A stretch of 64,000 bases of DNA from the NCBI GenBank assembly GCA_016207275.1, contig JACQPY010000007.1, positions 10,265-74,264 of the forward strand, in the 5' to 3' direction. Below the pieces are notes generated by a model, which did not search any database, was not told where the DNA came from, and worked only from the letters and a program-made list of their open reading frames with translations. The stretch is from Candidatus Kerfeldbacteria bacterium. GTDB taxonomy: Bacteria; Patescibacteriota; Patescibacteriia; SBBC01. A program made the translations under genes and the position numbers. This document shows positions 18,985 to 43,160 of the stretch, piece by piece. How positions within the stretch are numbered: the first letter of the stretch is position 1; each line of letters begins with the position of its first letter.

Positions 18985-19047
18985 TGCCTCTCCTCGCACG
19001 CGAGGAGAGGCATCCTCAAAAACGCCTCTCCTCTTCGAGGAGAGGCT
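18985..19047. repeat. Tandem GC-rich hairpins (GCCTCTCCTC-N4-GAGGAGAGGC, twice) at a gene end; a palindromic element family member or terminator
   Basis: gcctctcctcgcacgcgaggagaggc and gcctctcctcttcgaggagaggc sit directly after the stop at 18983. Confidence 0.6.
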
Positions 19048-19129
19048 CGGTGAGGAGGTGCTACAATACCACCATGACCATCCCGGCCATCGAGACCACC
19101 AGCGATGAGATTGCTTCAAAACTGCCCGT

Positions 19130-19730: not shown

Positions 19731-20765
19731 ATGACTATTCTAGCAATAGAAACTTCCTGTGACGAAACCTCGGCTGCGGTCATTAAAAGAGACGGCGCGA
19801 TTGCTCGAATCCGCTCAAACATCGTGGCCTCGCAAGTGAAGCTTCACGCCAAGACCGGCGGGGTTGTGCCGGAAGTCGCCGCGCGGGAGCACATCAAACC
19901 GATCATTCCCACCATTGAACGTGCCTTAGCCAAAGCCAAAACTACGGTGCACAACGTTGATGCCCTAGCCGTCACCCTTGGCCCAGGTCTGCACACGGCA
20001 CTTTCGGTTGGCGTGGAAACGGCCAAAGCGCTATCGTACACGCTCGGTCTGCCGCTCATGCCCATCAACCACCTGCACGGCCACATTGCCTCAAACTGGA
20101 ACGCTCGCGCGCCAAAACTTCCAGCCCTCTGCCTGATTGTCTCCGGCGGACACACTGAACTGGTGCTGATTGACCGACGGCGCCGTATCAAGTTACTCGG
20201 CGCCACCCGTGACGATGCAGCCGGCGAAGCCTTTGACAAAGTCGCCCAGCTCTTACGGCTCGGCTACCCGGGCGGGCCAATCATCAGCCAGCTCGCGCAA
20301 CGCGGCAATCCTCGGGCCTTTGACCTGCCGCGGCCAATGCTCGAACACAAAAACTTTGATTTCAGTTTTTCCGGATTGAAAACCGCAGTTCGGTATCTTA
20401 TTGAAAAGAGTCCCCTCCTGCCCGAGGAGGGGACGCGGCGAGGCCGCGGGGAGGTGGGAGACCTTTGCGCCTCATTCCAGCAAGCAATCGTCGATGTGCT
20501 CGTGGCAAAAACTGTTCGCGCGGCAAAACTACACAAGCCCAAAGAAGTGCTGCTGGCCGGCGGCGTGGCCGCAAATACAGAACTTCGGCGGCGGCTGGCG
20601 GGTGAGATCCATAAGCTTAGTTGGAAACCATCATACCACCAGCCGCCGCTTGCGCTTTGCACGGACAACGCCGGCATGATCGGGTTGGCGGCGGCATACT
20701 TCAAAATCCCAATCAAAGCAGACGCCTGGAAAACAGTGGATATCCGACCAACGGTTGTTGTATAA
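19731..20765 (+). CDS. tsaD: tRNA N6-adenosine threonylcarbamoyltransferase TsaD (Kae1/Gcp)
   Basis: MTILAIETSCDETSAAV, HLHGH, and a GGVAAN C-terminal. It contains an in-frame palindromic element at 20409-20459. Confidence 0.9.
   Translation: MTILAIETSCDETSAAVIKRDGAIARIRSNIVASQVKLHAKTGGVVPEVAAREHIKPIIPTIERALAKAKTTVHNVDALAVTLGPGLHTALSVGVETAKALSYTLGLPLMPINHLHGHIASNWNARAPKLPALCLIVSGGHTELVLIDRRRRIKLLGATRDDAAGEAFDKVAQLLRLGYPGGPIISQLAQRGNPRAFDLPRPMLEHKNFDFSFSGLKTAVRYLIEKSPLLPEEGTRRGRGEVGDLCASFQQAIVDVLVAKTVRAAKLHKPKEVLLAGGVAANTELRRRLAGEIHKLSWKPSYHQPPLALCTDNAGMIGLAAAYFKIPIKADAWKTVDIRPTVVV
20409..20459. repeat. Palindromic element inserted in-frame in tsaD (GTCCCCTCCTgcccgAGGAGGGGAC plus a GCGGcgagGCCGC hairpin and a GGGGAGGTGGGAG tail)
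   Basis: The 21-nt core cccctcctgcccgaggagggg differs by 1 nt from the intergenic copy at 26401-26422. It encodes SPLLPEEGTRRGRGEVG in a variable TsaD loop. Confidence 0.7.
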
Positions 20766-20771
20766 AAACTT

Positions 20772-20806
20772 CGGCCGCCCTCTCGATTCACTGAGAGAGC
20801 GGCCGT
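20772..20806. terminator. Bidirectional hairpin terminator between converging tsaD and 20833..21414
   Basis: cggccgccctctc-gattcactga-gagagcggccg. Confidence 0.45.
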
Positions 20807-20832
20807 CTTGCTACTGCAACGATCTGATCCTC

Positions 20833-21414
20833 CTACTTTGGCGGAGATGGAATGGGGTAGTCATCGCCCATTTCCAGCTGCGGCGCGCTGGCTGGCTGCA
20901 GCCTGATCGTCACCAGTTGCAGCCCCGGACTCCAGTGGATGCGACGAGTCTTGACGTCGACCCCGCTGTGTCCGGCGGCGGACAGCACCTCCTTCAGTCG
21001 GACCGCGATAGCCTGCGGGTCTGGCACGCCGTCGAAGATCCGATTTGATTCGATGGTCAGCGAGGCTTGCTGCGTGGCCCGGTACTCCTCAACTGCCGGT
21101 CGCAGGTCACGAGGAGTGATCTGTTCGAGCGGCTTTCGGACGGTGAGAATCTTGATCCACACCTCGACCGTCACCTCGCACCACCGATCGAGCAGCTCTT
21201 CAGTGCCCAGTACCCTGGTGCCGACTCTCAAACCGCCCTTTCTGCGAAGGGCGCGTCGCTCGATCAGCGACTTGACTTCGTCACCTTCCTTGCCCCGATT
21301 GACCCGAACGAGGCAGTGGGCAACTCCTCGATGATCGTCGTCCCTCAGAATCTTGTCGAGAAAGTTGTCGAACTGAATTCCGCTGCCGTTTGGCTTGATG
21401 CTGGCTTCGACCAC
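20833..21414 (-). CDS. Hypothetical protein, immediately downstream of the Cas4-like nuclease on the same strand
   Basis: 193-aa ORF lying 36 nt after the nuclease gene. No recognisable motif. Confidence 0.4.
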   Translation of the reverse strand: MVEASIKPNGSGIQFDNFLDKILRDDDHRGVAHCLVRVNRGKEGDEVKSLIERRALRRKGGLRVGTRVLGTEELLDRWCEVTVEVWIKILTVRKPLEQITPRDLRPAVEEYRATQQASLTIESNRIFDGVPDPQAIAVRLKEVLSAAGHSGVDVKTRRIHWSPGLQLVTIRLQPASAPQLEMGDDYPIPSPPK

Positions 21415-21450
21415 GGTTCCCTCCTGTACTTGGTCGGTCCGTCATTGGGT

Positions 21451-22689
21451 TTAACTCACTCTTCGCTTCCTGACGCGAATCCGAGGCAGACTGACGCGCG
21501 GAGCGATGAGCTCTTCCAGGGAAATTTGGACTGGAAGCACCAGCCTGACGAGCTGCTCGTACTCTGCTGCGCGAGCAACGACTTGTGGTTCCTGGGTGAC
21601 CGGGATGACTAGCTGTGAAGGCACCAGTTTCACCTTCTCCAGCCGGTGACGCTCAGCAAATGCTTGGCGAGCGGTTGGCCGCTGACCCAGCTCCCATTCA
21701 CGGCACTGCCTAAACGCCCGGCAGTACCGGCAATGATTCCCGCGCGGGAACAGGGGAGTGATGTCGCCGGTTTCGATGTCTCTCAGTTTCTCGCTGGGTA
21801 GTGTACTGGCTAAGTCAGTCGGCGGACGTCGTCCGAACAACACCCCGTCGAAGTAGGCTTGCTTCTGCCGCAGCTTAAGGTACAGATGCCCAATCTCCCG
21901 GGGAGTGCGGAGCGGCGCGGCTTGGAAGGCGTTCCGACGGTAGTTGTAGATGAACATTCCTCGCAGCGGCGGCTGGCCGGGAATCTTTCCGCGCGCCCGC
22001 AGGTAGTGGTAAGCCAGTTGGTAGAACGTCAGCTGCGTCCCGCTGGCCAAGACCGGGTAGTCGAGCCAGCGATCCTTGTAGTCAACGATCCAGGCGCCGC
22101 TAGGTTGAATGGCAATCCGGTCGATCACGCCATTCAGCTTGAGGCCGTGCCAGTCCAGTCCGTTGAACCGGACTTCGAGCAGATTGATCGTACCGTCGCC
22201 CCGACGTCGGACGTGCCGCTCGTGGAACTTCGTCAGGATCTCGTTACCCTGTTCAAAGAGAACGCCTGGCTGGGCCAAGTACTCCCAGGCAACCTCAACC
22301 GGCTGATTCGGCGGTTTGCGCTGCCGGTTTATCCAGCTGTCGAACTTCTCGAGCGAGTTGAAGGGATTGCGCGGGTTACTGGCAAGGATTCGTCCATCAG
22401 GCATGGTTCGCATGTCGCCGACCGCTCCCCACCATAACCCTCTCCACGCCCCCAAGAAGTCCTTCAGTTGTTCGAACGGATAACGGCCAGTTGACCGATG
22501 CGACGTCAGGAACCGCTGGAACATGTAGTGGTGCGAAATCCCCCAGACTCCCAGCGGAGGCTCCGGGCCGGGCTCCGGAATGATAACTTCCCAGAAGTAG
22601 CGGGCATCGCAAGCGACCGCCGTATCGAAGCCGGTCGCTGACCACATCTTCGAGACGTTGCGGGGATTTCTTGGTCGGTGTCTTTGCAC
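21451..22689 (-). CDS. Cas4/AddB-type PD-(D/E)XK nuclease with a probable 4Fe-4S cluster (DUF83-like), standalone
   Basis: N-terminal Cys (VACDARYF). Nuclease motifs GVIDRIAIQPSGAWIVDYKDRW (D...D...ExK-like DYK). C-terminal C-x2-C-x5-C (CRYCRAFRQC). Confidence 0.6.
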   Translation of the reverse strand: MQRHRPRNPRNVSKMWSATGFDTAVACDARYFWEVIIPEPGPEPPLGVWGISHHYMFQRFLTSHRSTGRYPFEQLKDFLGAWRGLWWGAVGDMRTMPDGRILASNPRNPFNSLEKFDSWINRQRKPPNQPVEVAWEYLAQPGVLFEQGNEILTKFHERHVRRRGDGTINLLEVRFNGLDWHGLKLNGVIDRIAIQPSGAWIVDYKDRWLDYPVLASGTQLTFYQLAYHYLRARGKIPGQPPLRGMFIYNYRRNAFQAAPLRTPREIGHLYLKLRQKQAYFDGVLFGRRPPTDLASTLPSEKLRDIETGDITPLFPRGNHCRYCRAFRQCREWELGQRPTARQAFAERHRLEKVKLVPSQLVIPVTQEPQVVARAAEYEQLVRLVLPVQISLEELIAPRVSLPRIRVRKRRVS

Positions 22690-22707
22690 AATCTCACCTC
22701 CTTGTGG

Positions 22708-23982
22708 TCACTGCATCTGCAGCGCCGCCACGACCTTGCGCCGGTCAAGGGACTGTACCCGGCCGGCGAGAACGACGTTCATTGTCTCCTGCCGGAGAAT
22801 CCGACGGGCCATATACTGAACGCGCGAGGACGCGGTAATGCGGTGCAAGCGGCGTTGGTATGAAGTGCTGCTAACCGGCATTCCCGTGACCAGCACTTGT
22901 TCTGCCAGGAACCCGGCCAATTTGAGTGGACGGGTGTCGCGCAGTTGAGCGTGGTGATCGAGTGACTCGTATGCCGAGGTTAGGTCTTCCTCGGATAATG
23001 GCTTGTCTCGCAACAACCGAAGCTCTTCGGCGATGATGCGCAGCACGCTGACCACGGACTCGGGGCGGCAAGAGGTGATGACCGTCAAGTCACCTTCCTG
23101 CCCGTAGTTCCAGAGTTGCGAGTCAGCCTGGTAGACAAGACCTTCCCCGACGCGCAACCGTTGACGAAGTCGGGCGCTTTTTCGGATTGGCGAGCCGAGG
23201 TGATTGTTGATGAGAGACAAGAGCAGGCGTCGGCGGTCGCCGAACCCGAACGGAATCGGAAAGCCGACGCCGACTTGGACTCGCTCATCAGGCCAAGTGA
23301 TCATCCGCAACCGCAACCGCGATTGGGTGACGTGAAACGGCTCGGACTTGAGCGTCGGGTTGCTCATCAGTCGGCCGAAACGCCGTTCGAGCAGCGGGCG
23401 AACCTCGCCCGGATCGAAGGCCCCGCCGGCGACAATCACCACCGCGTCATGCATGAGCGTGGCGTGCCAGCGTCGGACCATCTCCGGTGTCATCGTCCTT
23501 AAGGCGTTCGCCCGGCCGTAAATGCTTCGACCTAACGCGTGTCCGTGGAAGACTGTCTCCTCCAGCACGTCGGCCAACCGCTCGTCCGGTATTTCCCGAT
23601 TCTCGAATTCCTCCTCCAGGATCGGATTGACGATACGCTGCAGCGTCGTTTTGGTGAACCGCGGGTACAGGACCTGGTCAATCGCCAACTGGACCGACTC
23701 CGCGGCCTTTGACGGACGCGAACGGAAGGAAGCTAAAAGCGCCTCTTGACCAGTTTCGATGAAGTCCGTGTGGACACAATCGGCCGCCCGCGCGAACGCC
23801 AGCGTATCTGGAAATCGTCGACACTCTTCATCAACGAAGTGGTCGATCAGATGCGTTACCCCGAGCAGCTGGTTCGGCTCATACCGTCCGCCGCGGAAGG
23901 CGATACAGAGCGCGAACTCATCGGCCCCCGCATTCGGCACCAGCAGGCACCGGACATGGTTGCGGAATTGCTCCACCTGCAT
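22708..23982 (-). CDS. M16 (pitrilysin)-family protein with a non-canonical HxxDH in place of HxxEH
   Basis: GVTHLIDHFVDE at the zinc-motif position. SD GGGGGAGG lies before MQVEQ (start 23982). M16 two-domain length. Confidence 0.5.
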   Translation of the reverse strand: MQVEQFRNHVRCLLVPNAGADEFALCIAFRGGRYEPNQLLGVTHLIDHFVDEECRRFPDTLAFARAADCVHTDFIETGQEALLASFRSRPSKAAESVQLAIDQVLYPRFTKTTLQRIVNPILEEEFENREIPDERLADVLEETVFHGHALGRSIYGRANALRTMTPEMVRRWHATLMHDAVVIVAGGAFDPGEVRPLLERRFGRLMSNPTLKSEPFHVTQSRLRLRMITWPDERVQVGVGFPIPFGFGDRRRLLLSLINNHLGSPIRKSARLRQRLRVGEGLVYQADSQLWNYGQEGDLTVITSCRPESVVSVLRIIAEELRLLRDKPLSEEDLTSAYESLDHHAQLRDTRPLKLAGFLAEQVLVTGMPVSSTSYQRRLHRITASSRVQYMARRILRQETMNVVLAGRVQSLDRRKVVAALQMQ

Positions 23983-24105
23983 GTGCCACCTCCCCCGTGA
24001 GTAACGAAATGTCAACCATCAGGCAGCTCAACAACAGGACAGTCTTACCAGATTCGTCCGAGCCTGACAAGGGCCTTGTCAACTGCCGACGTTTCGCTTT
24101 TCTTA

Positions 24106-24155
24106 AAACTAAATACCGGTCGCTCCGTCTCTTGTTCTAGAAAGGAACAGGAACG
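24106..24155. other. Long, near-perfect 50-nt stem-loop: CCGGTCGCTCCGT..TGTTCtagaaagGAACA..ACGGAGCGACCGG
   Basis: A 13-bp perfect outer stem plus a nested 5-6 bp inner stem. Intergenic, in a lower-GC patch between the M16-like gene and the DEDD exonuclease gene. Confidence 0.55.
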
Positions 24156-24382
24156 GAGCGACCGGCTTGAAAGAAGTGCAATCCATTATGCGCCCGTACT
24201 TCGGTGCAAAAACCTCGTGGCCGGATTGGACTGCTAGTCCTCGTCTTCGAGAAGCTTCAGCAGCCGAGCTTACTCATCAGGGCGAAAGATCTACGGCGAG
24301 CCGATGAACTGATGCGGCAGGGCTCGCCTCCTTATGCGTAGAGTTTGCCGCCGTTGTTAGAGCGTGGGGGGTGACGTTTTCC

Positions 24383-24988
24383 CTAGAACGTCATTCGCTG
24401 GTCAAGAATCTGATAGACCTGGTGTTCATACCGGGCGCCGTTCAGTCCGCGGTGCGGTTTTGACTCCTCGCCCAATCCGAGGAAAGCGCCAATCGAGGAG
24501 AGTGAAAGTGAGGTGATCCTGCCAGCCAGGAAATCGGGCTTGAGCGCCTCACTAGCAACTGACATCAGGCAATGCCAGTGGTAGTCGCCTTTCCATTTGA
24601 CGCCACCGCGTTGGAAGTAGCGATCCAGCCACCAGAATTCGAAGCTCGCATTGTACGCCCACGGGACGCAGTTGACGGCGAAATCGTTCAAACGTCGGAC
24701 TGCTTCCTCAGCCGGCAAAGCGTCAACCCAGTCCGCAAAGGTGAAGCCGTTGTACCCATTGAAGGAGAGTTCTGCCTCGGACTTCCCGAGGGGATTCGTA
24801 ACCTCGAACTTCAGGTCGAGTTCTCCGAGAACCTCCAGGTTGCGCGGATCGACCTTGACCAGACCGACCTCGCAGATCTCTCCGCCGTCCTCGAAACCCG
24901 TGCCGGTTGTCTCAACGTCCATGAAGAGCTTCGGAAGAAGATGAAAGTTCACCGTCCCAATCGGGCGATCCCTGTTAAGCAATCCCAT
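24383..24988 (-). CDS. DEDD-family 3'-5' exonuclease (DnaQ/RNase T-like)
   Basis: Exo I FMDVETTG. Exo II AYNASFEFWWL (HNAsFD-like). Exo III YQILD (Y-x3-D). Confidence 0.55.
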   Translation of the reverse strand: MGLLNRDRPIGTVNFHLLPKLFMDVETTGTGFEDGGEICEVGLVKVDPRNLEVLGELDLKFEVTNPLGKSEAELSFNGYNGFTFADWVDALPAEEAVRRLNDFAVNCVPWAYNASFEFWWLDRYFQRGGVKWKGDYHWHCLMSVASEALKPDFLAGRITSLSLSSIGAFLGLGEESKPHRGLNGARYEHQVYQILDQRMTF

Positions 24989-25242
24989 GCTCGTTCCTCC
25001 TTAGAAGTCAAGGTGCGATTCTATTACCAGACCGCAAAAATCTTATGCTCAGCCGAAAAAAATGTCAACGGCCAGCTATCGACCGGTGAAGCGCTCCACG
25101 GCCTTACGGCCGTGGCTTCGGCCCTTTCGGTTTTCGGAGCGCGGAACCCCGCATCCGTCCCGCCAACGGCGAGACTGGTGCGTGGGTAATAGAAAGCCGC
25201 TCCCATTCCGAAGGAAGAGAGCGGCCGCACTTCGCACACGAA

Positions 25243-25965
25243 CTACTTCGACTCCATCTCATTCCCGCAGTTCAGGCACTTGAACAACGATCCACTGCGG
25301 ACGGTCTGATGCCCGCACACATCGCAGAGCGGGAGCGCGCCGCTAGCCGATGGCGCAGCCGCCACCTCTGGCTGCGGCTCGATCCGCACGTCGATCCGGC
25401 ACTTGCCGCCGGGCTCGAGCGGCCAATCCTGCCGAATTACCCCGATCGCGCAGCCGGTTACTCCCGAAATCCTCAGCTTCTCAACGAGAAGAACCTGTAC
25501 TTCTCCTCGTCCGTACGCACGTTCGCTCGGTTTGTCATCGTACGTGTAGATCGCTGTGAACCCCCGACCCCGCTTCACCATCTCGAGGAGGCGCGGGAAT
25601 CCGCTGCCATTGGGAAAGTGTCTCAGCGCTTCGGTAAAGTGGATGACATCGCTCTCGAGCGTGACATGAACATCGACGTCGCGCCACAGTGGATCGATCG
25701 GCCGACCGACTGCCAGAGTGTGAGTCTGAACGTAGTCCACATCCCTCGGGATCGCGTCCAGCTCGAACAGTCTGATCCGGCTGATGAGCGTCTGGACTGA
25801 GACATTGACCGCCTCATCCATGCCCGCTTCCTGCTTTGGCTTGACGGTCGTCTTGAAGGCAATCCTGATGCTGCCGCTCTTCTGTAGCAGCTCGACCAGC
25901 CGCTTCACTTCGTGAACGTGCGTGTTGCTTTCGTTCCCGCCCAGCGTGAAAACTTCGGTTGTCAT
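25243..25965 (-). CDS. Hypothetical protein with an N-terminal PP-loop-like motif and a C-terminal CxxC...CxxC zinc ribbon; weak QueC-like resemblance
   Basis: SD GGAGGGG lies 7 nt before MTTEVFTLGGNESNT, which resembles SGGxDS with L/E substitutions. C-terminal CDVCGHQ-x13-CLNCG. The longer ORF-track start lacks an SD. Confidence 0.45.
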   Translation of the reverse strand: MTTEVFTLGGNESNTHVHEVKRLVELLQKSGSIRIAFKTTVKPKQEAGMDEAVNVSVQTLISRIRLFELDAIPRDVDYVQTHTLAVGRPIDPLWRDVDVHVTLESDVIHFTEALRHFPNGSGFPRLLEMVKRGRGFTAIYTYDDKPSERAYGRGEVQVLLVEKLRISGVTGCAIGVIRQDWPLEPGGKCRIDVRIEPQPEVAAAPSASGALPLCDVCGHQTVRSGSLFKCLNCGNEMESK

Positions 25966-26136
25966 CGAACACCCCTCCATCCACCGCTTTACCGCGGGGT
26001 CCCGCCAAAGGCGGTGACAAGTCCATGCCAGCCTGTCGGCAGCCGCCTGTTTGGCGACCATCACGACCAGCGCCTGCGTCACGAACCTGACCACGCATTC
26101 TTGCATGAAACCCCTGATTTGTCAATCCCAAACCTC

Positions 26137-26150
26137 CCCTCCTGCCCGAC
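26137..26150. repeat. Half-copy (left arm) of the CCCCTCCTgcccga palindromic element
   Basis: cccctcctgcccga is identical to the left arm of the tsaD copy but lacks the right arm. It is followed by a ctcggcatcgag x2 direct repeat. Confidence 0.5.
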
Positions 26151-26321
26151 CTCTCGGCCCTGCCTCGGCATCGAGGGCTCGGCATCGAGATGAGCTCGTC
26201 GTTCGAGACCCTGAGGGGTCCTCAGACCCTGAACGGGAGGCCGAAGGGGGAGGGGTGCCCGAAGCGAGGGGTGGTGGGAGCGTCAAACCTTGACCCCGAC
26301 GCCGACTCGCGTTACTGTGCA

Positions 26322-26601
26322 CATGCGTCAATACCTCGGACCTATGTCACCGAGGAAGCAGGGGAAGAACGTTTTGCAAAGCAACGGCGCGGGTTTCATC
26401 TCCCCTCCTGTCCGAGGAGGGGTCGGGGGAGGAGGAAGAACCCGCGCACCGCCAGCAGAATCAGTAAAACCCCATCAATGAGTGTCTCACGAGACCTTGA
26501 AACGAGTTCAGGGTGACAGCGAGAAACCCGGGTGGTACCTCCCCTGAGCACAGTCGAAGGGGACCTGGGCGCCGATCAGGCGTTCGCTTTACTTTTCACT
26601 C
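26322..26601 (+). promoter_or_regulatory. Candidate T-box-like leader of valS (Val specifier GUC in a short hairpin loop; GGGUGGUACC T-box core)
   Basis: Promoter-like TTGACC-N17-TACTGT at 26290-26318. Hairpin CCTCGG-acctatGTCA-CCGAGG at 26334-26355 carries a GUC+A. GGGTGGTACC at 26529-26539 matches the T-box core AGGGUGGNACC. The hairpin TCCCCT..AGGGGA follows. Confidence 0.3.
26401..26422. repeat. Intergenic copy of the palindromic element CCCCTCCTgtccGAGGAGGGG
   Basis: One mismatch to the tsaD in-frame copy. Followed by a G-rich tail. Confidence 0.65.
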
Positions 26602-29178
26602 GTGTCTATCATGACAGAAAAAAGTATGCCAGACCTCCAAAAAATCTACGATCCAAAATCGGTTGAACAGCCGACCTACCAGCGCTGGTTAAAGTCTGGT
26701 TACTTCAACCCTGACAAGTTGCCGAACGCGAAGAAGCGCAAACCATTCTCGATTGCCATGCCGCCACCGAACGTTACCGGCGAGCTGCACATCGGCCACT
26801 CGCTCGATCTCACGACCCAAGACATTCTCACGCGCTGGAAACGGATGAGCGGATTCGCGTCACTGTGGCTGCCGGGCACTGACCACGCCGGCATTGCCAC
26901 GCAAATCCTGGTCGAACGGACGCTCCGCGAACAGGGCATCTCGCGCTACGCCATCGGCCGGGAAACATTTTTGAAGCACGTCTGGCAATGGAAAGAAAAA
27001 TACGGCGAACGCATTGTCGAGCAAATCAAGCGCCTGGGCGCCTCCTGCGACTGGTCGCGCGAGCACTTTACCATGGACCCGCGGCTGTCCGAAGCGGTGC
27101 AAACCGCCTTTGTTCGGCTGTACCACGACGGCTTGGTCTACCGCGGCGAACGGGTCATCCACTGGTGTACCGATGACCAAACGGGTATTTCCGACCTGGA
27201 AGTCGACTACCGCGAAGAGGCCGGCACCCTCTGGTACATTCGCTACCCGCTGCTGACCGGCAACGAGTACGTCACCGTGGCCACCACCCGACCGGAAACC
27301 ATGCTCGGCGACACCGGCGTGGCCGTCCACCCCGACGATCCGCGCTACAAAAAAATTCTCGGCCAGCGGGTTAAGCTGCCGATTTCCGGACGGATCGTGC
27401 CGATCGTCGCTGATCGCGCCGTTGACCCGCAGTTTGGCACGGGCGCGGTCAAGGTCACCCCGGCCCACGACGTGCTTGACTTTGAAATCGGCGAGCGGCA
27501 GGGTTTGTCTAAGCTCGTGGTCATCGATCACCACGGCCGGATGACGGCCGCCGCCGGTCGTGACTTTACCGGGATGGGCACGCTCGAAGCGCGCGAATTG
27601 GTCGTCCGACTGCTCCGCGAATCCGGCAACCTCGTTAAGACCGAAGACTTCACCCACAACGTCGCGTACTGCTCACGGTCGGCGACACGAATCGAGCCGT
27701 TGCTCTCCAGGCAGTGGTTCGTTAAAACCAAACCGCTGGCTACTTTGGCCTTGGCTGCCCTCCGGTCGAAGAAAACCGTGGTCGTTCCTGAACGGTTTGC
27801 CAAAGTTCTGGTCCGCTGGCTCACCAACATCCGCGACTGGAACATTTCCCGCCAGCTGTGGTGGGGCCACCGCTTGCCGATCTGGTACTGCATTGCCTGC
27901 GACGAGCCGGTCGCCTCGATTAAAGAACCCAAAGCCACCTGCCGGCGTTGCCGTAACCGCGGTTACCGACATGACGACGATACGCTCGATACCTGGTTCT
28001 CCTCGGCCCTGTGGACCTTTTCCACCCTCGGTTGGCCAAAAAAAACCAAAGACTTGAGACGGTTCCACCCCACGGCCGTTCTTGGCACCGGCTGGGACAT
28101 CCTCTTTTTCTGGGTCGCCCGGATGGTGATGTTTTCACGCTACTTCCTGAAAGAAGTACCGTTCAAAACCGTCTACATTCACGGTCTCGTGCTCAATCAA
28201 CAGGGCCAGAAAATGTCCAAATCAAAAGGCACCGGCATTGACCCCATCCCAATGGCCGAGAAATACGGAACTGATGCGCTGCGCCTCTCGTTGGTCGTCG
28301 GCACGGCACCCGGTCTCGACTTCCGCATGTCCGAGCAGAAAATCGCCGGTCAGCGAAACTTCTGCAACAAACTCTGGAACGTCAGCCGGTATGTGCTAAC
28401 ACAGCCCCCCCTTGCTAAGGGGGGGCGGAGGAGCCGCCAGGCGCCGCGGGGGGGTGGGAGCAGGGGTGGTACGTTCGCCGATGCCTGGATTCTCGCTCGA
28501 CTTAACGAAGTTACAAGTACCGTCACCCAGCACCTCGACAAGTACCAATTCGGACTGGCGGTGGAGGCCTTGCAACAATTTCTGTGGAAAGACTTTGCTG
28601 ACTGGTACGTGGAGATTCACAAAGTTGAAAAGAACACGGCCGTGCTGCGCCATGTCCTGCGACAATGCCTAATACTCCTCCATCCCTTTGCGCCGTTTAT
28701 CACTGAAGCAATCTGGAAAGCCATGGGCGAAAAACGGCTGCTGATGATCGAATCGTGGCCAACTAACAAAAATCGGTACCAGCATGAGCTTCGAACTATT
28801 CAAGGGTTCAAAAACTTTCAACGCCTGGTAATCGGCCTGCGCAACCTCAAAATCCACGGCGCCAACAACCAACCGCTGTCAATCCAACCAACTACTAAGC
28901 TCAACCGTGAACTGCTGGCCAGACTGACTGGCGTTGCCTTCGCCGACCAAGCACCGACTGAGGCTGACCGCGTCGTCATCGCCGATGAGCAGTTGATGGT
29001 GCCGGGGGCGGTGGCCAAACAATATGCCGACTGGCGCCGGCGCGAAGTCGAGCAGCTCAACCGCTACATCGCTCAAAAAGAACAACTCGTCGCCAACGCC
29101 AAAGCGCCGGAGCACGTGCGGGCGCAAGCTCAAGCCGATCTGAATGCCGCTCGGAGCCGGATAGCCGAACTAGAGTAA
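26602..29178 (+). CDS. valS: Valine--tRNA ligase
   Basis: HIGH (ELHIGHSLDL), KMSKS, and a C-terminal coiled coil. GTG start at 26602 or ATG at 26611. It contains an in-frame GC-rich palindromic insertion at 28404-28470. Confidence 0.9.
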   Translation: MSIMTEKSMPDLQKIYDPKSVEQPTYQRWLKSGYFNPDKLPNAKKRKPFSIAMPPPNVTGELHIGHSLDLTTQDILTRWKRMSGFASLWLPGTDHAGIATQILVERTLREQGISRYAIGRETFLKHVWQWKEKYGERIVEQIKRLGASCDWSREHFTMDPRLSEAVQTAFVRLYHDGLVYRGERVIHWCTDDQTGISDLEVDYREEAGTLWYIRYPLLTGNEYVTVATTRPETMLGDTGVAVHPDDPRYKKILGQRVKLPISGRIVPIVADRAVDPQFGTGAVKVTPAHDVLDFEIGERQGLSKLVVIDHHGRMTAAAGRDFTGMGTLEARELVVRLLRESGNLVKTEDFTHNVAYCSRSATRIEPLLSRQWFVKTKPLATLALAALRSKKTVVVPERFAKVLVRWLTNIRDWNISRQLWWGHRLPIWYCIACDEPVASIKEPKATCRRCRNRGYRHDDDTLDTWFSSALWTFSTLGWPKKTKDLRRFHPTAVLGTGWDILFFWVARMVMFSRYFLKEVPFKTVYIHGLVLNQQGQKMSKSKGTGIDPIPMAEKYGTDALRLSLVVGTAPGLDFRMSEQKIAGQRNFCNKLWNVSRYVLTQPPLAKGGRRSRQAPRGGGSRGGTFADAWILARLNEVTSTVTQHLDKYQFGLAVEALQQFLWKDFADWYVEIHKVEKNTAVLRHVLRQCLILLHPFAPFITEAIWKAMGEKRLLMIESWPTNKNRYQHELRTIQGFKNFQRLVIGLRNLKIHGANNQPLSIQPTTKLNRELLARLTGVAFADQAPTEADRVVIADEQLMVPGAVAKQYADWRRREVEQLNRYIAQKEQLVANAKAPEHVRAQAQADLNAARSRIAELE
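28404..28470. repeat. Palindromic element inserted in-frame in valS (GCCCCCCCTTgctAAGGGGGGGC plus a GCGGaggagCCGC hairpin and a GGGGGGGTGGGAG tail)
   Basis: It shares the tail motif CGCGGGG(A/G)GGTGGGAG with the tsaD element. It encodes PPLAKGGRRSRQAPRGGGSRGG in a variable loop between RYVL and ADxWIL. Confidence 0.65.
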
Positions 29179-30136: not shown

Positions 30137-30155
30137 ATCCCCCGTAGGGGGATTA
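30137..30155. repeat. Perfect palindrome AATCCCCCgtaGGGGGATT
   Basis: Intergenic, between the csoR-family gene and pilB. Confidence 0.5.
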
Positions 30156-30210
30156 TACCATTGCCCAGATTGCTTAACAATCCCCACCACCTCCCCACCG
30201 CTTCGCGGTC

Positions 30211-30232
30211 TCCCCTCCACAATTGTGGAGGG
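30211..30232. repeat. Perfect 22-nt palindrome CCCCTCCACAATTGTGGAGGGG (palindromic element family variant)
   Basis: The sequence equals its own reverse complement. It lies in the csoR-pilB intergenic region and is followed by a GTCC/GGAC hairpin. Confidence 0.6.
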
Positions 30233-30258
30233 GATGTCCGGAGGACAGGGGCGGTGAC

Positions 30259-31950: not shown

Positions 31951-32061
31951 TCAGTATACCCCGTGACCGACTTTATTGAAATTACCACACCCGCTCGCGG
32001 GGCTGCGTTTGATGCGTGCGCAACCGCCCCACAGACTGTGGTTAAGAACTCACTACGTTCA

Positions 32062-32172
32062 GCCCCTCCTCGACTGAGGGGGGCTAATTGGGGTGTCAGT
32101 TTTGGGCTCAGGCTGATGGGATGGTTTCTCCTCTCCCTTCCAGGGAGAGGTTGGGTGAGGGTTTCACTGTCA
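32062..32172. repeat. Palindromic element cluster: AGCCCCTCCTCgactGAGGGGGGCT plus CCTCTCCCTtccAGGGAGAGG with a GGGTGAGGG tail
   Basis: Intergenic between pilB and the DHH gene. Same arm motif as the other copies. Confidence 0.55.
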
Positions 32173-32185
32173 TCGACCTCGGCCG

Positions 32186-33316
32186 CTACTTAAACAAGCT
32201 CTCGACGATCTTGGTGACGCTGGCTTCAGCGGCGCCGAGGTCAGGGTAGGTTGACTTCCAGATGACCAGGTTTTGCGCGCCGTGTACCGCCGCCCCGGGG
32301 AAAAGCTTGAGCAAGTTGATGGCGTTAGTGGCGCTGGCCAGGACCGTAACGATTCCGCGGCGGGCGTAGATGATAGCGATCAGCTGGGCCGTCGGAACGT
32401 TGACGATAAGCTCGTCGATGACGCGCGGCAGCTCATCTTCGGTGGCTTCGGCCTTAGCAAAATCTTGCTCGGACAGCAGTGAGTAAACGAACCGGCCGTC
32501 GAACTTTTCTTGCAGCCGCGCCAGCGCCCGCCCCCAGAGCTTCAGCGTGCCGAGCGACTTCGACTGAAACAAGTTGTCGATAATTTCCTCGCGCCGGGCG
32601 CCCGAGGCAATCAGGTGGCTGGCGACGGCCAGCGAGCGCGGCGTCACGTTCGGCGTCTGGAAGCTCTTGGTTTTAGAAATGATGCCGGTCAGCAAGGTCG
32701 TCGCCACCTGCTCGTCGAGGACGTTAAACCCTAACGCCTTGACCAACTCAAATACCAGCTCCGAGGTCGAGCTGGCGGTCAGGTCAACCAGGTTGACTGC
32801 GCCGTAGTGGGTGTTTTTGGCGCGGTGATCGACGTTCAAAATCGGCACGCGGTAGAAAAACTCGGCGTTGTTGGTGGCTAGCTCGCCGAGCAGTTCGAGA
32901 TCGGCCGCATCAACGGTAACCACCAGATCGTAGGCGTAGTTGCCGGCGCCGGTGGTCACGTCTCGAGCCTCGTAGAAGCCGTCTTTGGGCGTGACCAAGA
33001 CGTTGAGCTTACCATCCTCGATGGCGTAGCTCAGCTCGTCGACGGCTACCTTGGAAACATCGAGGGTGATGATGAACTGGCGGATGTTCTTCAACTCTTT
33101 TTCGATGGCGTTGCTCTTCGGCAAGAAACCGTGGTTGGCTGGCAACTCGAACTGGCTACAGACAATCCGGGCGCGCTTGCCCAGTTTTTCCAGCGTCAAG
33201 AACAACCCCAGGCCGCCGGCAATGGCGTCCGACGACGGCCGGACGGGCAGACAGATGAGGATATTCTTGCTCCGGTTGAGCAGTTCGACGGCTTGGTGGA
33301 GGGAGGTCAGTTCCAT
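32186..33316 (-). CDS. DHH-family phosphoesterase (NrnA-like), motifs partly degenerate
   Basis: Domain order and length fit DHH plus DHHA1. ILICLPVRPSSDAIAG sits at the DHH motif position. Confidence 0.5.
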   Translation of the reverse strand: MELTSLHQAVELLNRSKNILICLPVRPSSDAIAGGLGLFLTLEKLGKRARIVCSQFELPANHGFLPKSNAIEKELKNIRQFIITLDVSKVAVDELSYAIEDGKLNVLVTPKDGFYEARDVTTGAGNYAYDLVVTVDAADLELLGELATNNAEFFYRVPILNVDHRAKNTHYGAVNLVDLTASSTSELVFELVKALGFNVLDEQVATTLLTGIISKTKSFQTPNVTPRSLAVASHLIASGARREEIIDNLFQSKSLGTLKLWGRALARLQEKFDGRFVYSLLSEQDFAKAEATEDELPRVIDELIVNVPTAQLIAIIYARRGIVTVLASATNAINLLKLFPGAAVHGAQNLVIWKSTYPDLGAAEASVTKIVESLFK

Positions 33317-33524
33317 GGTTTAACTACACCCTCCAAGATGCTTTGTAGAGAATGGGTTATCTTACTGAGCCGGGCAAAACCTGTCAACCCCGTTAGGGCG
33401 TCGGCGTGAAGTATCCTGAAAACTGAAACCTACCACGAACTAATTACCTCGGCCTCTCTAACCGGGTCACGTTTCGGCGCCGTTTGGCTGGCCGCCGGGG
33501 CCAGCGCCTGCTAGCATAGGCACT

Positions 33525-34055
33525 ATGGCTCGCTCCGTCACCGTGACGACCGATTCGCCCGCCGCCACCCGTCGACTGGCCGCTGCCCTTGGCCGAGCTG
33601 CCCGGGCTGGAGAAATTGTTGCCTTGACCGGCGGTCTTGGCAGCGGCAAAACGACCTTCGCCCAAGCCTTGGCGCGGGCGGCGGGTGTTCGTTCGCGGCT
33701 GCGGAGTCCAACGTTTGTGATCGCGGCCAGCTACCGCACCGGACGTCAACTGGCCCGACAGCTCCACCATCTTGACCTCTACCGGTTACGCCGGTTGTCA
33801 GTGACCGACACCGCCACGGTGACCGAAGTACTCGGCGACCGTCAAGCAATTATCATCGTCGAGTGGGCTGACCGGCTGGATCGTCGGCAGCTCCCCCGAA
33901 ACCGAACGACCTTCCTTAACTTCCGTGTCCGCGTCAATCACCGGCGCGTCATTCGAGTTGTTGGCCGGCTTAGCCGCTTCGTGCCGGTAGGGCCGGGGCG
34001 ACGTCCTTTGGGAGGCTCGGCCGACCGCGCTGGACCTCGCTGCCGATCGGCCTAA
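33525..34055 (+). CDS. tsaE: tRNA threonylcarbamoyladenosine biosynthesis protein TsaE
   Basis: GEIVALTGGLGSGKTTFAQALARAAG...SPTFVIAASY...HLDLYRL. Confidence 0.8.
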   Translation: MARSVTVTTDSPAATRRLAAALGRAARAGEIVALTGGLGSGKTTFAQALARAAGVRSRLRSPTFVIAASYRTGRQLARQLHHLDLYRLRRLSVTDTATVTEVLGDRQAIIIVEWADRLDRRQLPRNRTTFLNFRVRVNHRRVIRVVGRLSRFVPVGPGRRPLGGSADRAGPRCRSA

Positions 34056-34284
34056 CCGAATCGTGAACCACCAACTTGGTTGGCGTTATCGCCACGACCT
34101 GCGAACGGTGGATGCGCAGGGTTGATTGAATTAGTGGCTGGACGAGACGGCTCGGACTGACCAGGTACGCGTTGACCAGGTGTGCTTCAACGTCCAGTTC
34201 GATGTCAACCACCCGGCCGAGACGGTTGCCGCTCTCGGTTTCAACTGGCAGGTGGTGGAGCTGCTTGAGCGAGACAATGCTCAT
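33970..34284 (-). CDS. PRC-barrel domain protein
   Basis: GNRLGRVVDIELDVEAHLVNAYLV fits the PRC barrel. Its convergent 86-nt overlap with tsaE makes the exact C-terminus uncertain. Confidence 0.45.
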   Translation of the reverse strand: MSIVSLKQLHHLPVETESGNRLGRVVDIELDVEAHLVNAYLVSPSRLVQPLIQSTLRIHRSQVVAITPTKLVVHDSVRPIGSEVQRGRPSLPKDVAPALPARSG

Positions 34285-35051
34285 GGCTTCGACTCAATCG
34301 TCGGCGGTCGCTTGGGCCGGGCCAAAATCTGCCGCTGACCAATCTGGAATAAGTTCCAGGTGATGTAGTAGAGTGATAGGCCGGCCGGCAGAATGTACGA
34401 GATGAAGGCGAAGCTGAAAGGGGTGATGTAGTTCATCTGTCGCAGGATGGAGGTGGCCGACCGTTCGTCTTTGGCGCCCGGAACACTCGGCGGCGTGCTC
34501 TTGGGGGCCAGCAGCCGGGTCAGAAGGAACTGTGACCCGCCAACGAGAATGGCTAGGACGATATTCTTGGTCGCGCTTAAGTCTAAAAACCCAAACGAGG
34601 TCGTCACGATTGGCGCGGCGGCGTAGATGTCGCGCAACGAGCCGTACAGGTCAGCCAGTCGTTCGGGGGCCAGCAGGTGCGTGACCGGGTCAATCTTGAG
34701 GCCAGAAATGAAAACTTGATAGAGGGCGATAAAGAAGGGGAACTGGACGATAATCGGCAGGCAAGAGGATAACGGATTAAACTTATGCTGACGGTAGAGG
34801 GCCATGGTCTGCCGAGCCAGCTCTTCGCGGTTGTTTTTGTGTTTCTGCTGCAGTTCCTTCAACTTCGGCTGCAGCTCTTGCAGCATTTGTGAGGAGCGGA
34901 CTTGGATCAATGATGGCCAGAAGAGTACCGTCAACGTCAGGATCGTGACGGCAATGATGGCCAGCCCCAAATCATGAACCGGGAGATAGTGGTAGGCCGC
35001 GATCAGGGCATTAAAGATCGGCCGGTAGAAGATGGTGTGGAACAGTGCCAT
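34281..35051 (-). CDS. yidC: Membrane protein insertase YidC (short form)
   Basis: 256 aa with 5 TM segments, in the conserved position after yidD/rnpA. Confidence 0.8.
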   Translation of the reverse strand: MALFHTIFYRPIFNALIAAYHYLPVHDLGLAIIAVTILTLTVLFWPSLIQVRSSQMLQELQPKLKELQQKHKNNREELARQTMALYRQHKFNPLSSCLPIIVQFPFFIALYQVFISGLKIDPVTHLLAPERLADLYGSLRDIYAAAPIVTTSFGFLDLSATKNIVLAILVGGSQFLLTRLLAPKSTPPSVPGAKDERSATSILRQMNYITPFSFAFISYILPAGLSLYYITWNLFQIGQRQILARPKRPPTIESKP

Positions 35052-35056
35052 CGTGG

Positions 35057-35299
35057 TCAGCGCACGGGGTCAAGGCCACCCGCGCTCCAGGGATTGCAGC
35101 GGAGCAAACGCCAGCCAGCCAGCCAGAGTCCCCGGATCAGGCCGTAGCGTTCCAGGGCTTTGATGGCGTAGCTGGAGCAGGAAGGGTGAAAACGACAAAA
35201 ACCATGGGGATACGCCGCCCGCCACCGTCCGTGGTCAGGAGAGAGCGTCCGTTGGTACCTCCGGATGAGGGCGGTAATGAGGGTAGTCAGTGGGTTCAT
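35057..35299 (-). CDS. yidD: Membrane protein insertion efficiency factor YidD
   Basis: [19 protein letters not shown] motif. Confidence 0.8.
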
Positions 35300-35643
35300 C
35301 GACGAGAGTTGCTGGTGACGCGATCAATCAGCCTGGCGCATTCGGCCGCCAAGTTGGCGAAGGGCTGCTGGAGAGCGCTCGATTTAGCAATGATGACGAG
35401 ATCGAACCCGCGGGCCGTGGGTAGCCGGGGCCGGACGGCTGCTCGGAGCTGCCGGCGCAGGCGGTTTCGCGCCGTCGCCCGCTTCGATACCTTCGTGCCG
35501 ACGACGATGCCGACCCGGGGTGTCGCCGTTGGTTTCGTTCGCCGTGCCCGGACGACGAGTGTCTGACCGCCAACCGCCCGCCCCTGCTGGTAGACCCGGC
35601 TAAAGGCGGTGGTGTGGCGGAGCCGGTTGGCACGCGACAGCAT
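35296..35643 (-). CDS. rnpA: RNase P protein component RnpA
   Basis: [22 protein letters not shown]..., Arg-rich. The start was chosen at the internal ATG 35643. The longer ORF-track form would overlap rpmH. Confidence 0.75.
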
Positions 35644-35648
35644 ATCCC

Positions 35649-35795
35649 CTAGCGCACGCCCGGGGTCAGCCGTCGGCGACCTTTGCGTCGTCGACGGCTG
35701 AGTACCCGACGGCCGCCGGCGCACCGAGCGCGACGGAGAAAGCCGTGTACGCGATGACGGCGACGTTTCTTTGGTTGGTAGGTTCGCTTCGGCAT
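35649..35795 (-). CDS. rpmH: 50S ribosomal protein L34 (bL34)
   Basis: Manual translation gives [48 protein letters not shown]. It is too short for the ORF track. Conserved rpmH-rnpA-yidD-yidC order. Confidence 0.8.
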
Positions 35796-35870
35796 ACTTT
35801 TCGTATTGTTACCGCAGTATAACAGTCAAAAACCGAAATCGTCAACGCGTGAGGGTTGAGTGGTGGGAAA

Positions 35871-35901
35871 ATTTCCACATTTCATGCACAGCTTCTCCAC
35901 A
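35871..35901. promoter_or_regulatory. DnaA-box-like 9-mers (TTTCCACA, TTCTCCACA) in the rpmH-dnaA intergenic region
   Basis: atttccaca at 35871-35879 and ttctccaca at 35893-35901. Each is 1 mismatch from TTATCCACA. Confidence 0.45.
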
Positions 35902-35985
35902 CCTAATCCATAAAATCATTAGTTTTTGATTCATCAAGTCGTGCTATAGTCTGTTAGTAGCTAGACGTAACGTACTGGGGTTTCC

Positions 35986-37347: not shown

Positions 37348-37597
37348 ATGACTGTGGGATTGTGGTCACAAAAATCGCGGGTGGCCACGGCACAAACTAG
37401 GGATAACTCTCCCCGCCGTTACCAAACCACCAACACCTTATCCCATTGACGCCGACGCCTGCCAACAACCCCCACCAACCCACCCACACTGCCACCAACA
37501 CAAAAACCACACCACCACCACCCCTAACCCCAACAAGCAACCACCGAAACAATGGTTATCCACTTTCCCACCGTCCTTATTACTATTACCATCTGGT
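37348..37597. promoter_or_regulatory. Candidate oriC in the dnaA-dnaN intergenic region
   Basis: DnaA boxes GTTATCCAC (about 37552), TTATCCCA and TGTGGGAT. An AT-rich stretch ttattactattaccatctggtatgaaaat. A CA-only tract of about 110 nt at 37440-37550. Confidence 0.5.
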
Positions 37598-43071: not shown

Positions 43072-43095
43072 CGTCATATTAGCCCCTCCTCACAT
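43072..43095. repeat. Palindromic element GCCCCTCCTCacatGAGGAGGGGC flanked by an A6 run
   Basis: 10-bp stem. Lies between tyrS and the end of the alpha-glucan operon. Confidence 0.6.
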
Positions 43096-43160
43096 GAGGA
43101 GGGGCAAAAAACGACCTATGTTTATTCCACTGCTTGTGGGGTGGTCTGATTGTTGAATGG

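Follow-up and report, generated by a model that had tools for sequence, protein, structure and literature searches.

Here, we describe a composite hairpin repeat in a 64-kb stretch of Candidatus Kerfeldbacteria DNA (contig JACQPY010000007.1; hereafter the window, with positions counted from its first letter), copies of which lie between genes and, in frame, inside tsaD and valS. The repeat is similar in kind to repetitive extragenic palindromic (REP) elements and Rickettsia palindromic elements (RPEs) and is new for Patescibacteria. It probably represents a non-autonomous DNA repeat family resembling REPs and bacterial interspersed mosaic elements (BIMEs), which spread in the genome and colonised permissive protein loops.

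Anatomy and copies of the repeat in the window

The unit of about 45-60 nt consists of a hairpin H1 (CCCCTCCT-loop-AGGAGGGG, i.e., CCCCTCC(T)-loop-(A)GGAGGGG) with a stem of 8-13 bp, a short GC hairpin H2 of 3-9 bp with GCGAAGC as its most frequent apex, and a tail rich in G, GGGG[A/T]GGTGG, after which GAG is often found. CCCCCCC/GGGGGGG, TCTCCCCC/GGGGGAGA and CCTCTCC/GGAGAGG occurred as variants of the H1 stem, and the unit is free of stop codons in all three forward reading frames. In the window, six copies are full or nearly so and another four or five consist of the hairpin only, about ten per 64 kb (Table 1). An earlier note on this DNA, made from the sequence alone, had reported a family of at least eight copies; all of these were found, the last one at 43082 rather than 43072, and the hairpins at 19024-19046 and 32130-32150 have to be added. 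Exact CCCCTCCT-N(2-12)-AGGAGGGG hairpins were present three times (20412, 26402, and 43083) as compared to 0.00 expected from 100 dinucleotide shuffles. Perfect hairpins with a pyrimidine 5' arm, a purine 3' arm and a stem of at least 8 bp were present five times, whereas 200 second-order Markov simulations gave 0.125 ± 0.36 (maximum 2). No perfect hairpin of this stem length with the arms in opposite order occurred in the window, and at a stem length of at least 7 bp the figures were ten against one.

A covariance model (R1), for which nine Kerfeldbacteria copies were the sole seed, recovered six full copies in the window with E-values from 1e-21 to 1e-4, the tsaD and 30182(-) copies being seed sequences that match by construction. 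H1-only matches were obtained at 43082, 32130, 18986, and 32063, and five relatives carried 3-4 copies per 11-21 kb. Both helices covary: in an alignment of 27 copies fitted to the R1 model, pairing was retained in 93.5% of cells and 7 of 13 pairs showed changes on both sides, which was reached by none of 500 shuffles, and all slid controls were much lower than the true alignment. The earlier view of a mobile or amplified element rather than chance is thus borne out for amplification by the six full copies and the covarying helices, while mobility is inferred. H1 and loop of the tsaD copy are identical to the copy at 26136 in 14 of 14 bases and to that at 26402 in 20 of 21, in accordance with the single-base difference noticed before.

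Table 1. Copies of the repeat and their host genes in the window, state of the intragenic sites in relatives, and subfamilies at the tsaD site
Feature	Position	Strand	R1 match and predicted fold	Parts, product or state
tsaD	19731-20765	+		344-aa open reading frame (ORF); 100% identical to NCBI Candidatus Kerfeldbacteria TsaD; Pfam PF00814
Full element in tsaD	20406-20463	+	73.9 bits, E=1e-21 (seed); -31.7 kcal/mol, z=-2.55	H1 20410-20434; H2 GCGGC-GAG-GCCGC 20435-20447; tail GGGGAGGTGGGAG 20448-20460; encodes SPLLPEEGTRRGRGEVG
valS	26602-29178	+		858-aa ORF; NCBI valine--tRNA ligase (Candidatus Kerfeldbacteria) of 850 aa, 100% identical
Element in valS	28399-28470 (R1 match 28399-28462)	+	32.7 bits, E=2e-8	H1 GCCCCCCCTT-GCT-AAGGGGGGGC 28404-28426; GC-rich expanded middle; tail GGGGGGGTGGGAG(CAGGGGTGG); encodes PPLAKGGRRSRQAPRGGGSRGG
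Split intergenic copy 5' of valS	26136-26283	+	21.2 bits, right half (26214-26283)	
Split copy, left half	26136-26149	+		CCCCTCCTGCCCGA; alignment to intact L001:4775-4830 and L004:11797-11852
Split copy, right half	26248-26283	+		GGAGGGG-TGCCCGAAGCGA-GGGGTGGTGGGAG; same alignment
Copy in valS 5' region	26387-26447 (R1 26396-26441)	+	25.6 bits, E=3.5e-6; -40.5 kcal/mol, z=-3.3	Outer stem GCGCGGGTT/AACCCGCGC around H1 (26402-26422) and GGGGGAGGAGG
Full intergenic copy with closing stem	30182-30256 (R1 30181-30238)	-	57.4 bits (seed); -47.3 kcal/mol, z=-4.15	Outer-stem 5' strand 30256-30249; H1 30234-30211; H2 CCGCGAAGCGG 30208-30198; tail GGGGAGGTGGTGGGG 30196-30182
Two adjacent hairpins	18985-19012, 19024-19046 (region 18985-19067)	+	31.1 bits for 19019-19067; -31.8 kcal/mol, z=-3.7	Arms CCTCTCC/GGAGAGG; 19024 hairpin with outer stem CATCCTCA/TGAGGAGG and tail GGTGAGGAGGTG
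Imperfect H1-like hairpin	32063-32085		Weak, E ~1-3	
Perfect 9-bp hairpin	32130-32150 (region to 32161)		Weak, E ~1-3	CCTCTCCCT-TCC-AGGGAGAGG, then TTGGGTGAGGG
H1-only copy	43082-43105		~15 bits, H1 part only	GCCCCTCCTCA-CA-TGAGGAGGGGC
Possible partial copy	41554-41617	-	17.5 bits, E=0.0013; weak, not counted	H2 and tail only, GCGCCGCGAAGCCGCGAGGTGGT
tsaD site filled				Window, L001, L003, L004, L005, L128, L130 (tandem pair)
tsaD site empty				L002, L006
tsaD site other				L129, different palindrome
valS site filled				Window, L001-L005
valS site empty				L006
valS site other				L128, 7-nt tandem repeat
tsaD subfamily 1				Loop GCCCG, tail GGTGGGAG
tsaD subfamily type B				H2 = CCCCGCC-N-GGCGGG
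tsaD subfamily canonical (L128)				TGGCCGAAGGCC-GGGGTGGT
tsaD subfamily 4				CACGGCGAAGCCGAG-GGGGAGGT

The window copies lie 2-36 nt past stop codons. The hairpin at 18985 begins 2 nt past the stop of a PMT_2 glycosyltransferase gene, the 30182(-) copy lies about 3 nt 3' of the stop of a T2SSE/PilB-like ATPase gene (Pfam), the copy at 43082-43105 sits between convergent genes, and the hairpins at 32063 and 32130, whose membership of the family is probable but not secure, both lie 3' of a DHH-family gene. The sequence at 26137, previously taken as a half copy, is the left half of a full copy whose H1 is interrupted by a GC-rich insertion of 98 nt (26150-26247), the orthologues in the relatives L001 and L004 being intact. 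This insertion holds CTCGGCATCGAG twice and a hairpin CTGAGG-GGT-CCTCAG, and no second copy of it was found in any sequence compared. The weak match at 41554-41617(-) could be what is left of a third intragenic copy; its product, WRAAKPRGGP, belongs to the N-terminal, cytoplasmic tail of a PBP1a-like protein.

In the intergenic copies 30182-30256(-), 26387-26447, and 19009-19067, the tail region pairs with a strand 5' of H1, C-rich in some intergenic copies, and closure of this outer stem gives a multibranch structure; the intragenic copies have no outer stem. For the 30182(-) copy, the outer stem of the predicted multibranch fold is part of the minimum free energy structure only, at low ensemble frequency, and the centroid is without it. 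A hammerhead- or twister-like three-way junction formed by the closing stem was considered and dropped, since neither a conserved catalytic core nor an Rfam match was found. An intrinsic (Rho-independent) terminator was likewise rejected: the hairpin has no U-run behind it, H1 leads into H2 and the G-rich tail, and T-runs precede H1. In searches with Rfam 15, tRNA alone passed the gathering threshold in the window, with no match to the element; in 12 pan-bacterial loci tRNA and a group II intron passed, neither overlapping the element, and the E-value mode gave only chance matches below threshold.

Promoter-like boxes directly follow some of the elements, namely TTGACC-17-TACTGT before valS (26283-26325) and TTGTTA-17-TATAAT on the minus strand (30140-30181), and in a metagenome-assembled genome (MAG) of the FCB group (L111) the element is followed by promoter-like GGGGTGGTATAAT at about 4840 and 7390, which suggests that element-then-promoter is a recurrent arrangement. 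The cumulative GC skew has its minimum near 30-34 kb of the window. The syntenic neighbourhood of the relatives contains yidC-like and dnaA genes, candidate counterparts of which are a 256-aa ORF at 34281-35051(-) and a 453-aa ORF at 35986-37347(+), and the replication origin probably lies at about 32000-37400. Of the six full elements, five are located to the left of this putative origin and have the plus strand as their G-rich strand.

Coding copies in tsaD and valS

As claimed before, the copies in tsaD and valS preserve the reading frame, the ORFs of 344 and 858 aa being intact, and share a second hairpin and the tail GGGG(A/G)GGTGGGAG. H1 is read in different frames, as CCC CTC CTx (P-L-L) in tsaD and xCC CCC CCT (x-P-P) in valS, and the peptides encoded by inserts include SPLLPEEGTR and GGGSRGGTFADAWILAR. 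In the AlphaFold2 model of TsaD (mean predicted local distance difference test score, pLDDT, of 91.9), the insert loop comprises residues 227-238 between the helices 214-226 and 239-268, flanked by a helix ending LKTAVRYLIEK and one starting DLCASFQ; residues 231-236 have a pLDDT below 50 and are the sole segment of three or more residues that low in the model. The ValRS insert is located between the CNKLWN (NKLxN) helix and the (F/L)ADxWI (LADxW) helix. The loops are longer by 10 aa than in T. maritima TsaD (PDB 6N9A) and by 11 aa than in T. thermophilus ValRS (PDB 1GAX). The inserts are predicted to form disordered Pro/Gly/Arg-rich loops where homologues vary in length. Their earlier assignment to variable loops is thereby upheld, with the amendment that they replace most of the ancestral loop.

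The comparison with relatives covered the syntenic tsaD-valS loci of seven (L001-L006 and L128) and tsaD-only contigs of two (L129 and L130), whose TsaD proteins are 67-80% identical to that of the window. The intragenic tsaD and valS sites are polymorphic among these relatives. L006 had no R1 match in 21 kb and possesses short ancestral loops in both genes, and more distant Kerfeldbacteria (about 50-57% identity) have short TsaD and ValRS loops as well; shared peptides in relatives free of the family, which the earlier note had named as evidence against its reading, were thus not observed. The empty tsaD loop, e.g., RQPSIFKSRRRIAD, is ancestral because its length and its motif F-[KN]-S-[KR]3-I-A-D match those of the outgroups, and on the same grounds a decayed element was excluded as its origin. 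The element therefore replaced about 10 loop residues with a net gain of 5 to 11 aa, the ancestral loop having 13 aa and the element-bearing loop 18-24 aa.

Filled, empty and other states are interspersed in a rough neighbour-joining tree of TsaD. At least four subfamilies occupy one codon site in tsaD and two the site in valS; a metagenome scan for the type B hairpin CCCCGCC-N-GGCGGG gave two matches, both intergenic, and no new intragenic sites. An intergenic copy of L005 is identical to the tsaD copy of that genome over the 29 nt of H2 plus tail, in which the orthologous tsaD copies of other genomes differ. Continuing copying between sites, be it by re-insertion or gene conversion, fits this pattern, and one old insertion that drifted does not. 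In seven tsaD genes, the codons of the H1 arms were identical in 88% (100/114) of pairs with the same amino acid as compared to 53% (290/549) in flanking conserved codons. Moreover, the Leu codon adjacent to the loop covaries with its partner, CTT with AAG (Lys) and CTC with GAG (Glu). The covarying stems and the conserved synonymous sites show that the constraint acts on the nucleic acid.

Further inserts were observed in the same genes. The tsaD loop of L130 (1113-1216) carries two full elements of different subfamilies in tandem, giving a 36-aa insert, PLLPEEGVRRSRGEEGVHPLLSKEGTRRSRGEV. In valS of L128 (6395-6496), a 7-nt tandem repeat (AGCTAMM) is present in frame four times and encodes KSYKLPAKSY or SYQLKATS-like peptides, and the same insert type is found at the TsaD loop of the proteins P0006, P0016, P0018, and P0024. 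A long palindrome of another kind, CTCGACTTCGCTCGAACAAC...GTTCTTCGAGCGAG, occupies this TsaD loop in frame in L129 (10631-10789) and in TsaD P0010 and encodes SRLRSNNNSLVLRA-type peptides. ValS P0127 and P0132 have lineage-specific Gly/Ser/Lys-rich inserts (SGKAGS...) in a second ValRS loop (alignment columns about 750-770), and ValS P0136, from a 54%-identical relative, has a separate Gly/Arg-rich insert, AAGGGGRGRRASASGPAPHTPH, in the main loop.

Distribution in other phyla

Other phyla were scanned with the pattern CCCCTCCT-N3-7-AGGAGGGG-N2-8-GCGAAGC, which specifies 23 bases and for which fewer than one chance match is expected in the whole collection (a rough estimate assuming equal base use). 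At least 128 matches in at least 120 stretches from many phyla were obtained; the figures in this section refer to the matches listed, and taxon counts are not frequencies. Going by record titles, the hosts included Acidobacteria/Terriglobia, Burkholderiales and other Betaproteobacteria, Gammaproteobacteria (Competibacteraceae), Alphaproteobacteria, Bacteroidota including the cultured Hymenobacter segetis, H. artigasi, H. antarcticus, and Pedobacter heparinus, as well as Opitutales, Coraliomargarita, Phycisphaerae, Chloroflexi, Chlorobium, and Nitrospinota. Labels of MAG bins are possibly erroneous; nonetheless, several hosts are cultured isolates or complete chromosomes. Although outside the search pattern, GGGGTGGT follows H2 in nearly all matches. 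In the outer stem of H2, 38 different complementary versions were counted. R1, seeded with Kerfeldbacteria only, scores elements of other phyla with up to 62.7 bits, and a Burkholderiales copy (L018) differs from Kerfeldbacteria L001:4781 essentially in the H2 stem alone. Subfamilies are shared across phyla and the family is pan-bacterial; the assumption that it is specific to one lineage had to be given up.

The copies in other phyla lie mostly after stops (22 convergent, 27 co-directional, and 8 divergent by rough calls filtered by GC content at third codon positions, GC3), with a sense to antisense ratio of about 26:19 and hence no strong bias. The complement of the tail was found within 70 nt downstream in 41 of 128 copies, forming inverted pairs, an upstream closing strand in 7 of 128, and tandem arrays in two loci (L030 and L040). 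Gene calls in these phyla are heuristic; since a test for stop-free segments was too permissive in GC-rich genomes (48 of 128 matches flagged), intragenic cases were assessed with GC3-filtered calls and Pfam. At least two Pfam-checked copies are in frame in real genes, one in antisense orientation in the linker between the ketoreductase (KR) and acyl carrier protein (ACP) domains of a polyketide synthase (L064; peptide SNHPGASRHPSLSKEGN) and one in the linker of a kinase/PD40 protein (L123). A BLAST search of PLSDB plasmids with the consensus gave no match, to which the low-complexity filter possibly contributed. A pattern scan of viral contigs gave one match only, and the element is therefore not phage-borne.

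Several copies per genome are found in other phyla as well; one Acidobacteria MAG, nzgw67, is the source of 18 of the 120 stretches listed. On its contigs (L012, L008, L016, and others), the unit lies inside a repeat of more than 100 nt with the conserved flanks AAGCGAAATCGAGGAAAAGCGTTTT ... GCTGTTCAA..GAAATTGATTTTGTTG.TCGAACCGCCCCGC, and the core has apparently served as the nucleus of composite elements in this genome.

Origin of the repeat and comparison with known systems

We propose that copies of the repeat arise within the genome by transposition through a trans-acting enzyme and/or by gene conversion between copies, and that they persist where they do little harm, i.e., just after stops, just before promoters and in coding regions for permissive surface loops, where they would be tolerated because the unit is stop-free in all forward frames. 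In tsaD and valS, the element may have overwritten the ancestral 13-aa loop, and a disordered Pro/Gly/Arg-rich loop of 18-24 aa would be translated. Once colonised, a site could have its content refreshed or swapped for other subfamilies, and such continual refreshing would explain why the stems are perfect though the host proteins diverged by 20-35%. Several points weigh against this reading. No RAYT or other transposase was detected among the 10 window ORFs scanned with Pfam, and all-against-all clustering of 1,242 ORFs in the 120 loci listed gave no recurrent neighbouring gene. Alignments of filled and empty sites contained neither terminal inverted repeats nor target-site duplications, both of which would be expected of MITEs (transposable elements of the miniature inverted-repeat type), and the coding copies look like replacements rather than clean insertions in these alignments. 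Filled sites are patchily distributed, which could in part be due to homologous recombination of alleles among strains instead of repeated insertion. Translation of the inserts is presumed, with frame conservation as its sole basis, and the genome-wide copy number is extrapolated from a 64-kb window. Finally, near-identity over 45 nt from phylum to phylum is unusual among REPs, most of which are lineage-specific, and could instead point to a conserved cellular function.

A bolder version of the repeat hypothesis, which we put forward only tentatively, takes up this near-identity: the 45-nt module (H1, GCGAAGC mini-hairpin, and GGGGTGGT) might be a horizontally moving element, conserved almost base for base in hosts from Patescibacteria to Acidobacteriota, Proteobacteria, Bacteroidota, Verrucomicrobiota, Planctomycetota, and Chlorobiota. 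It would be spread by a trans-acting enzyme or by a universal host function with a single-stranded DNA hairpin as its substrate, and it could repeatedly overwrite permissive loops of essential genes. If true, the module would supply new protein loops in a general way, the reduced genomes of the Candidate Phyla Radiation (CPR) included. It is unlikely that the copies are instead functional cis-elements under selection at each site, such as terminators, insulators, mRNA 3'-end stabilisers or hairpins sequestering Shine-Dalgarno-like sequences, with the intragenic ones serving as pause or attenuation sites. Such roles would be in line with the extreme conservation across phyla, the perfect stems kept within coding DNA, the sense orientation that each of the six full copies in the window has with respect to its neighbouring gene, the Shine-Dalgarno-like sequences AGGAGGGG and GGAGGTG, and intergenic copies that come after stops and directly before -35/-10-like boxes (30182(-), 26283, and L111). 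However, U-runs are missing after the hairpins while a T-run is common before H1, both orientations occur among the matches listed from other phyla, subfamilies are interchangeable at one site, and no Rfam family was matched. The copies are dispensable, too, L006 being without any and L002 without the tsaD copy, and the repeat is present in Bacteroidota, a group in which Shine-Dalgarno sequences are little used.

Selection at the protein level, by which Arg/Gly-rich (RGG-like) loops would be favoured in two tRNA-binding enzymes with the element as co-opted raw material, is a still less probable account. Both TsaD and ValRS bind tRNA, the peptides TRRGRGEVG, GGRRSRQAPRGGGSRGG, KPRQQRAGVV, and GGDTAKPRGG are basic and Gly-rich, and published intragenic REPs likewise lie in tRNA synthetase and pseudouridine synthase genes (PMC3733652). 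By contrast, the peptides differ strongly by subfamily and frame while the DNA hairpin is conserved, unrelated inserts (the 7-nt repeat encoding KSYKLPAKSY and the palindrome encoding SRLRSNNNS) occupy the same loops, some relatives retain the short ancestral loop, and the loop is predicted to be disordered. Both cis-regulatory and protein-level roles could be secondary co-option on top of a repeat origin. That the intragenic copies remain untranslated, through intron-like excision, an intein, or bypassing like that of mitochondrial 'byp' elements, might be considered in view of the strong hairpin within coding sequence and the insertions in rRNA genes for which CPR bacteria are known, yet it has very little in its favour. 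More than 20 orthologous TsaD and ValRS inserts of at least five types and lengths were all in frame, with neither a frameshift nor a stop in any orthologue aligned, as the earlier note had required; a removed sequence needs no frame, so this argues against removal. Intein or intron signatures were not found, nor was there an Rfam intron match in the window. A chance by-product of GC-rich Pro/Leu/Glu/Gly codon usage could be imagined in a window of 58% GC, where CCN and GGN codons are common, but this idea is refuted by the shuffle and Markov controls with values near zero and has practically no standing left: identical multi-part copies are present in non-coding DNA, and the covariance model recovers the composite element in other phyla.

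With regard to significance, these results indicate that small, streamlined Patescibacteria genomes carry REP-like, (semi-)selfish repeats and that surface loops of TsaD and ValRS were remodelled by them. The loops of tsaD and valS act as 'landing pads' that received at least four subfamilies and two unrelated insert types in succession, and they offer a compact system for the study of protein segments made by repeats. Near-identity across phyla raises the question of the copying agent and of how the element crosses phyla. In practice, annotations and alignments come to contain spurious ORFs and odd Gly/Arg/Pro-rich 'inserts' through such repeats.

Among known systems, REP superfamilies have been described in eight phyla, with compensatory stem variants, dimers and clusters; they favour sites downstream of ORFs, and their in-frame intragenic copies encode 20-30 aa, with Opitutus terrae and Thauera among the high-GC hosts (Di Nocera et al., 2013; PMC3733652). 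The supposition that in-frame lodging had not been described for a high-GC lineage is therefore incorrect, and the behaviour observed here is of a known kind. Like REP/BIME/REPIN sequences (PMC3733652; PMC2817692), the family consists of short GC-rich stem-loops in many copies with compensatory subfamilies, occurs as singletons, inverted dimers and clusters, lies downstream of ORFs and between convergent or co-directional genes, and occasionally has in-frame intragenic copies, also in tRNA synthetase and RNA-modification genes. In contrast, the present unit is a composite of two hairpins and a conserved G-rich tail, the GTAG/CGTC tag 5' of the stem is absent (mostly TTTT, AACT, or CATT stands in the four positions ahead of H1), the only GTGG stands in the tail 3' of both hairpins, and the sequence is nearly the same in many phyla, whereas REP families are mostly restricted to one species or genus. 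Nunvar et al. (2010; PMC2817692) do not have the family in their table of REPs, and no name for it was found in the literature searched, which is absence of evidence only. With MITEs and enterobacterial small mobile sequences (Delihas, 2007; PMC2759123) it has in common that small non-autonomous repeats can carry ORFs and are found in genes. The element is much shorter than these. The DNA mini-hairpin d(GCGAAGC) is extraordinarily stable, and the H2 apex of most copies is exactly this heptamer, which is a biophysical motif and not a genetic element.

The closest functional parallel is provided by RPEs, of which RPE-4 and RPE-6 have been treated as intragenic REPs (PMC3733652). The resemblance noticed before is supported by the intact ORFs and the loop positions, i.e., insertion in frame, at the surface and without disruption of the host protein. 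RPEs, reportedly described by Ogata and co-workers in 2000 and 2002, are said to lie in frame in ORFs of essential genes, to be translated into surface peptide segments and to occur between genes as well. RPE-1 is about 100-150 bp long, AT-rich and confined to Rickettsia, whereas the present unit has 45-60 nt, is GC-rich, bears no apparent likeness to RPEs in sequence and crosses phyla, and it replaces the native loop instead of only adding to it. Taken together, the repeat works like an RPE and is not a member of that family, from which it is set apart by size, base composition and host rather than by direct sequence comparison.

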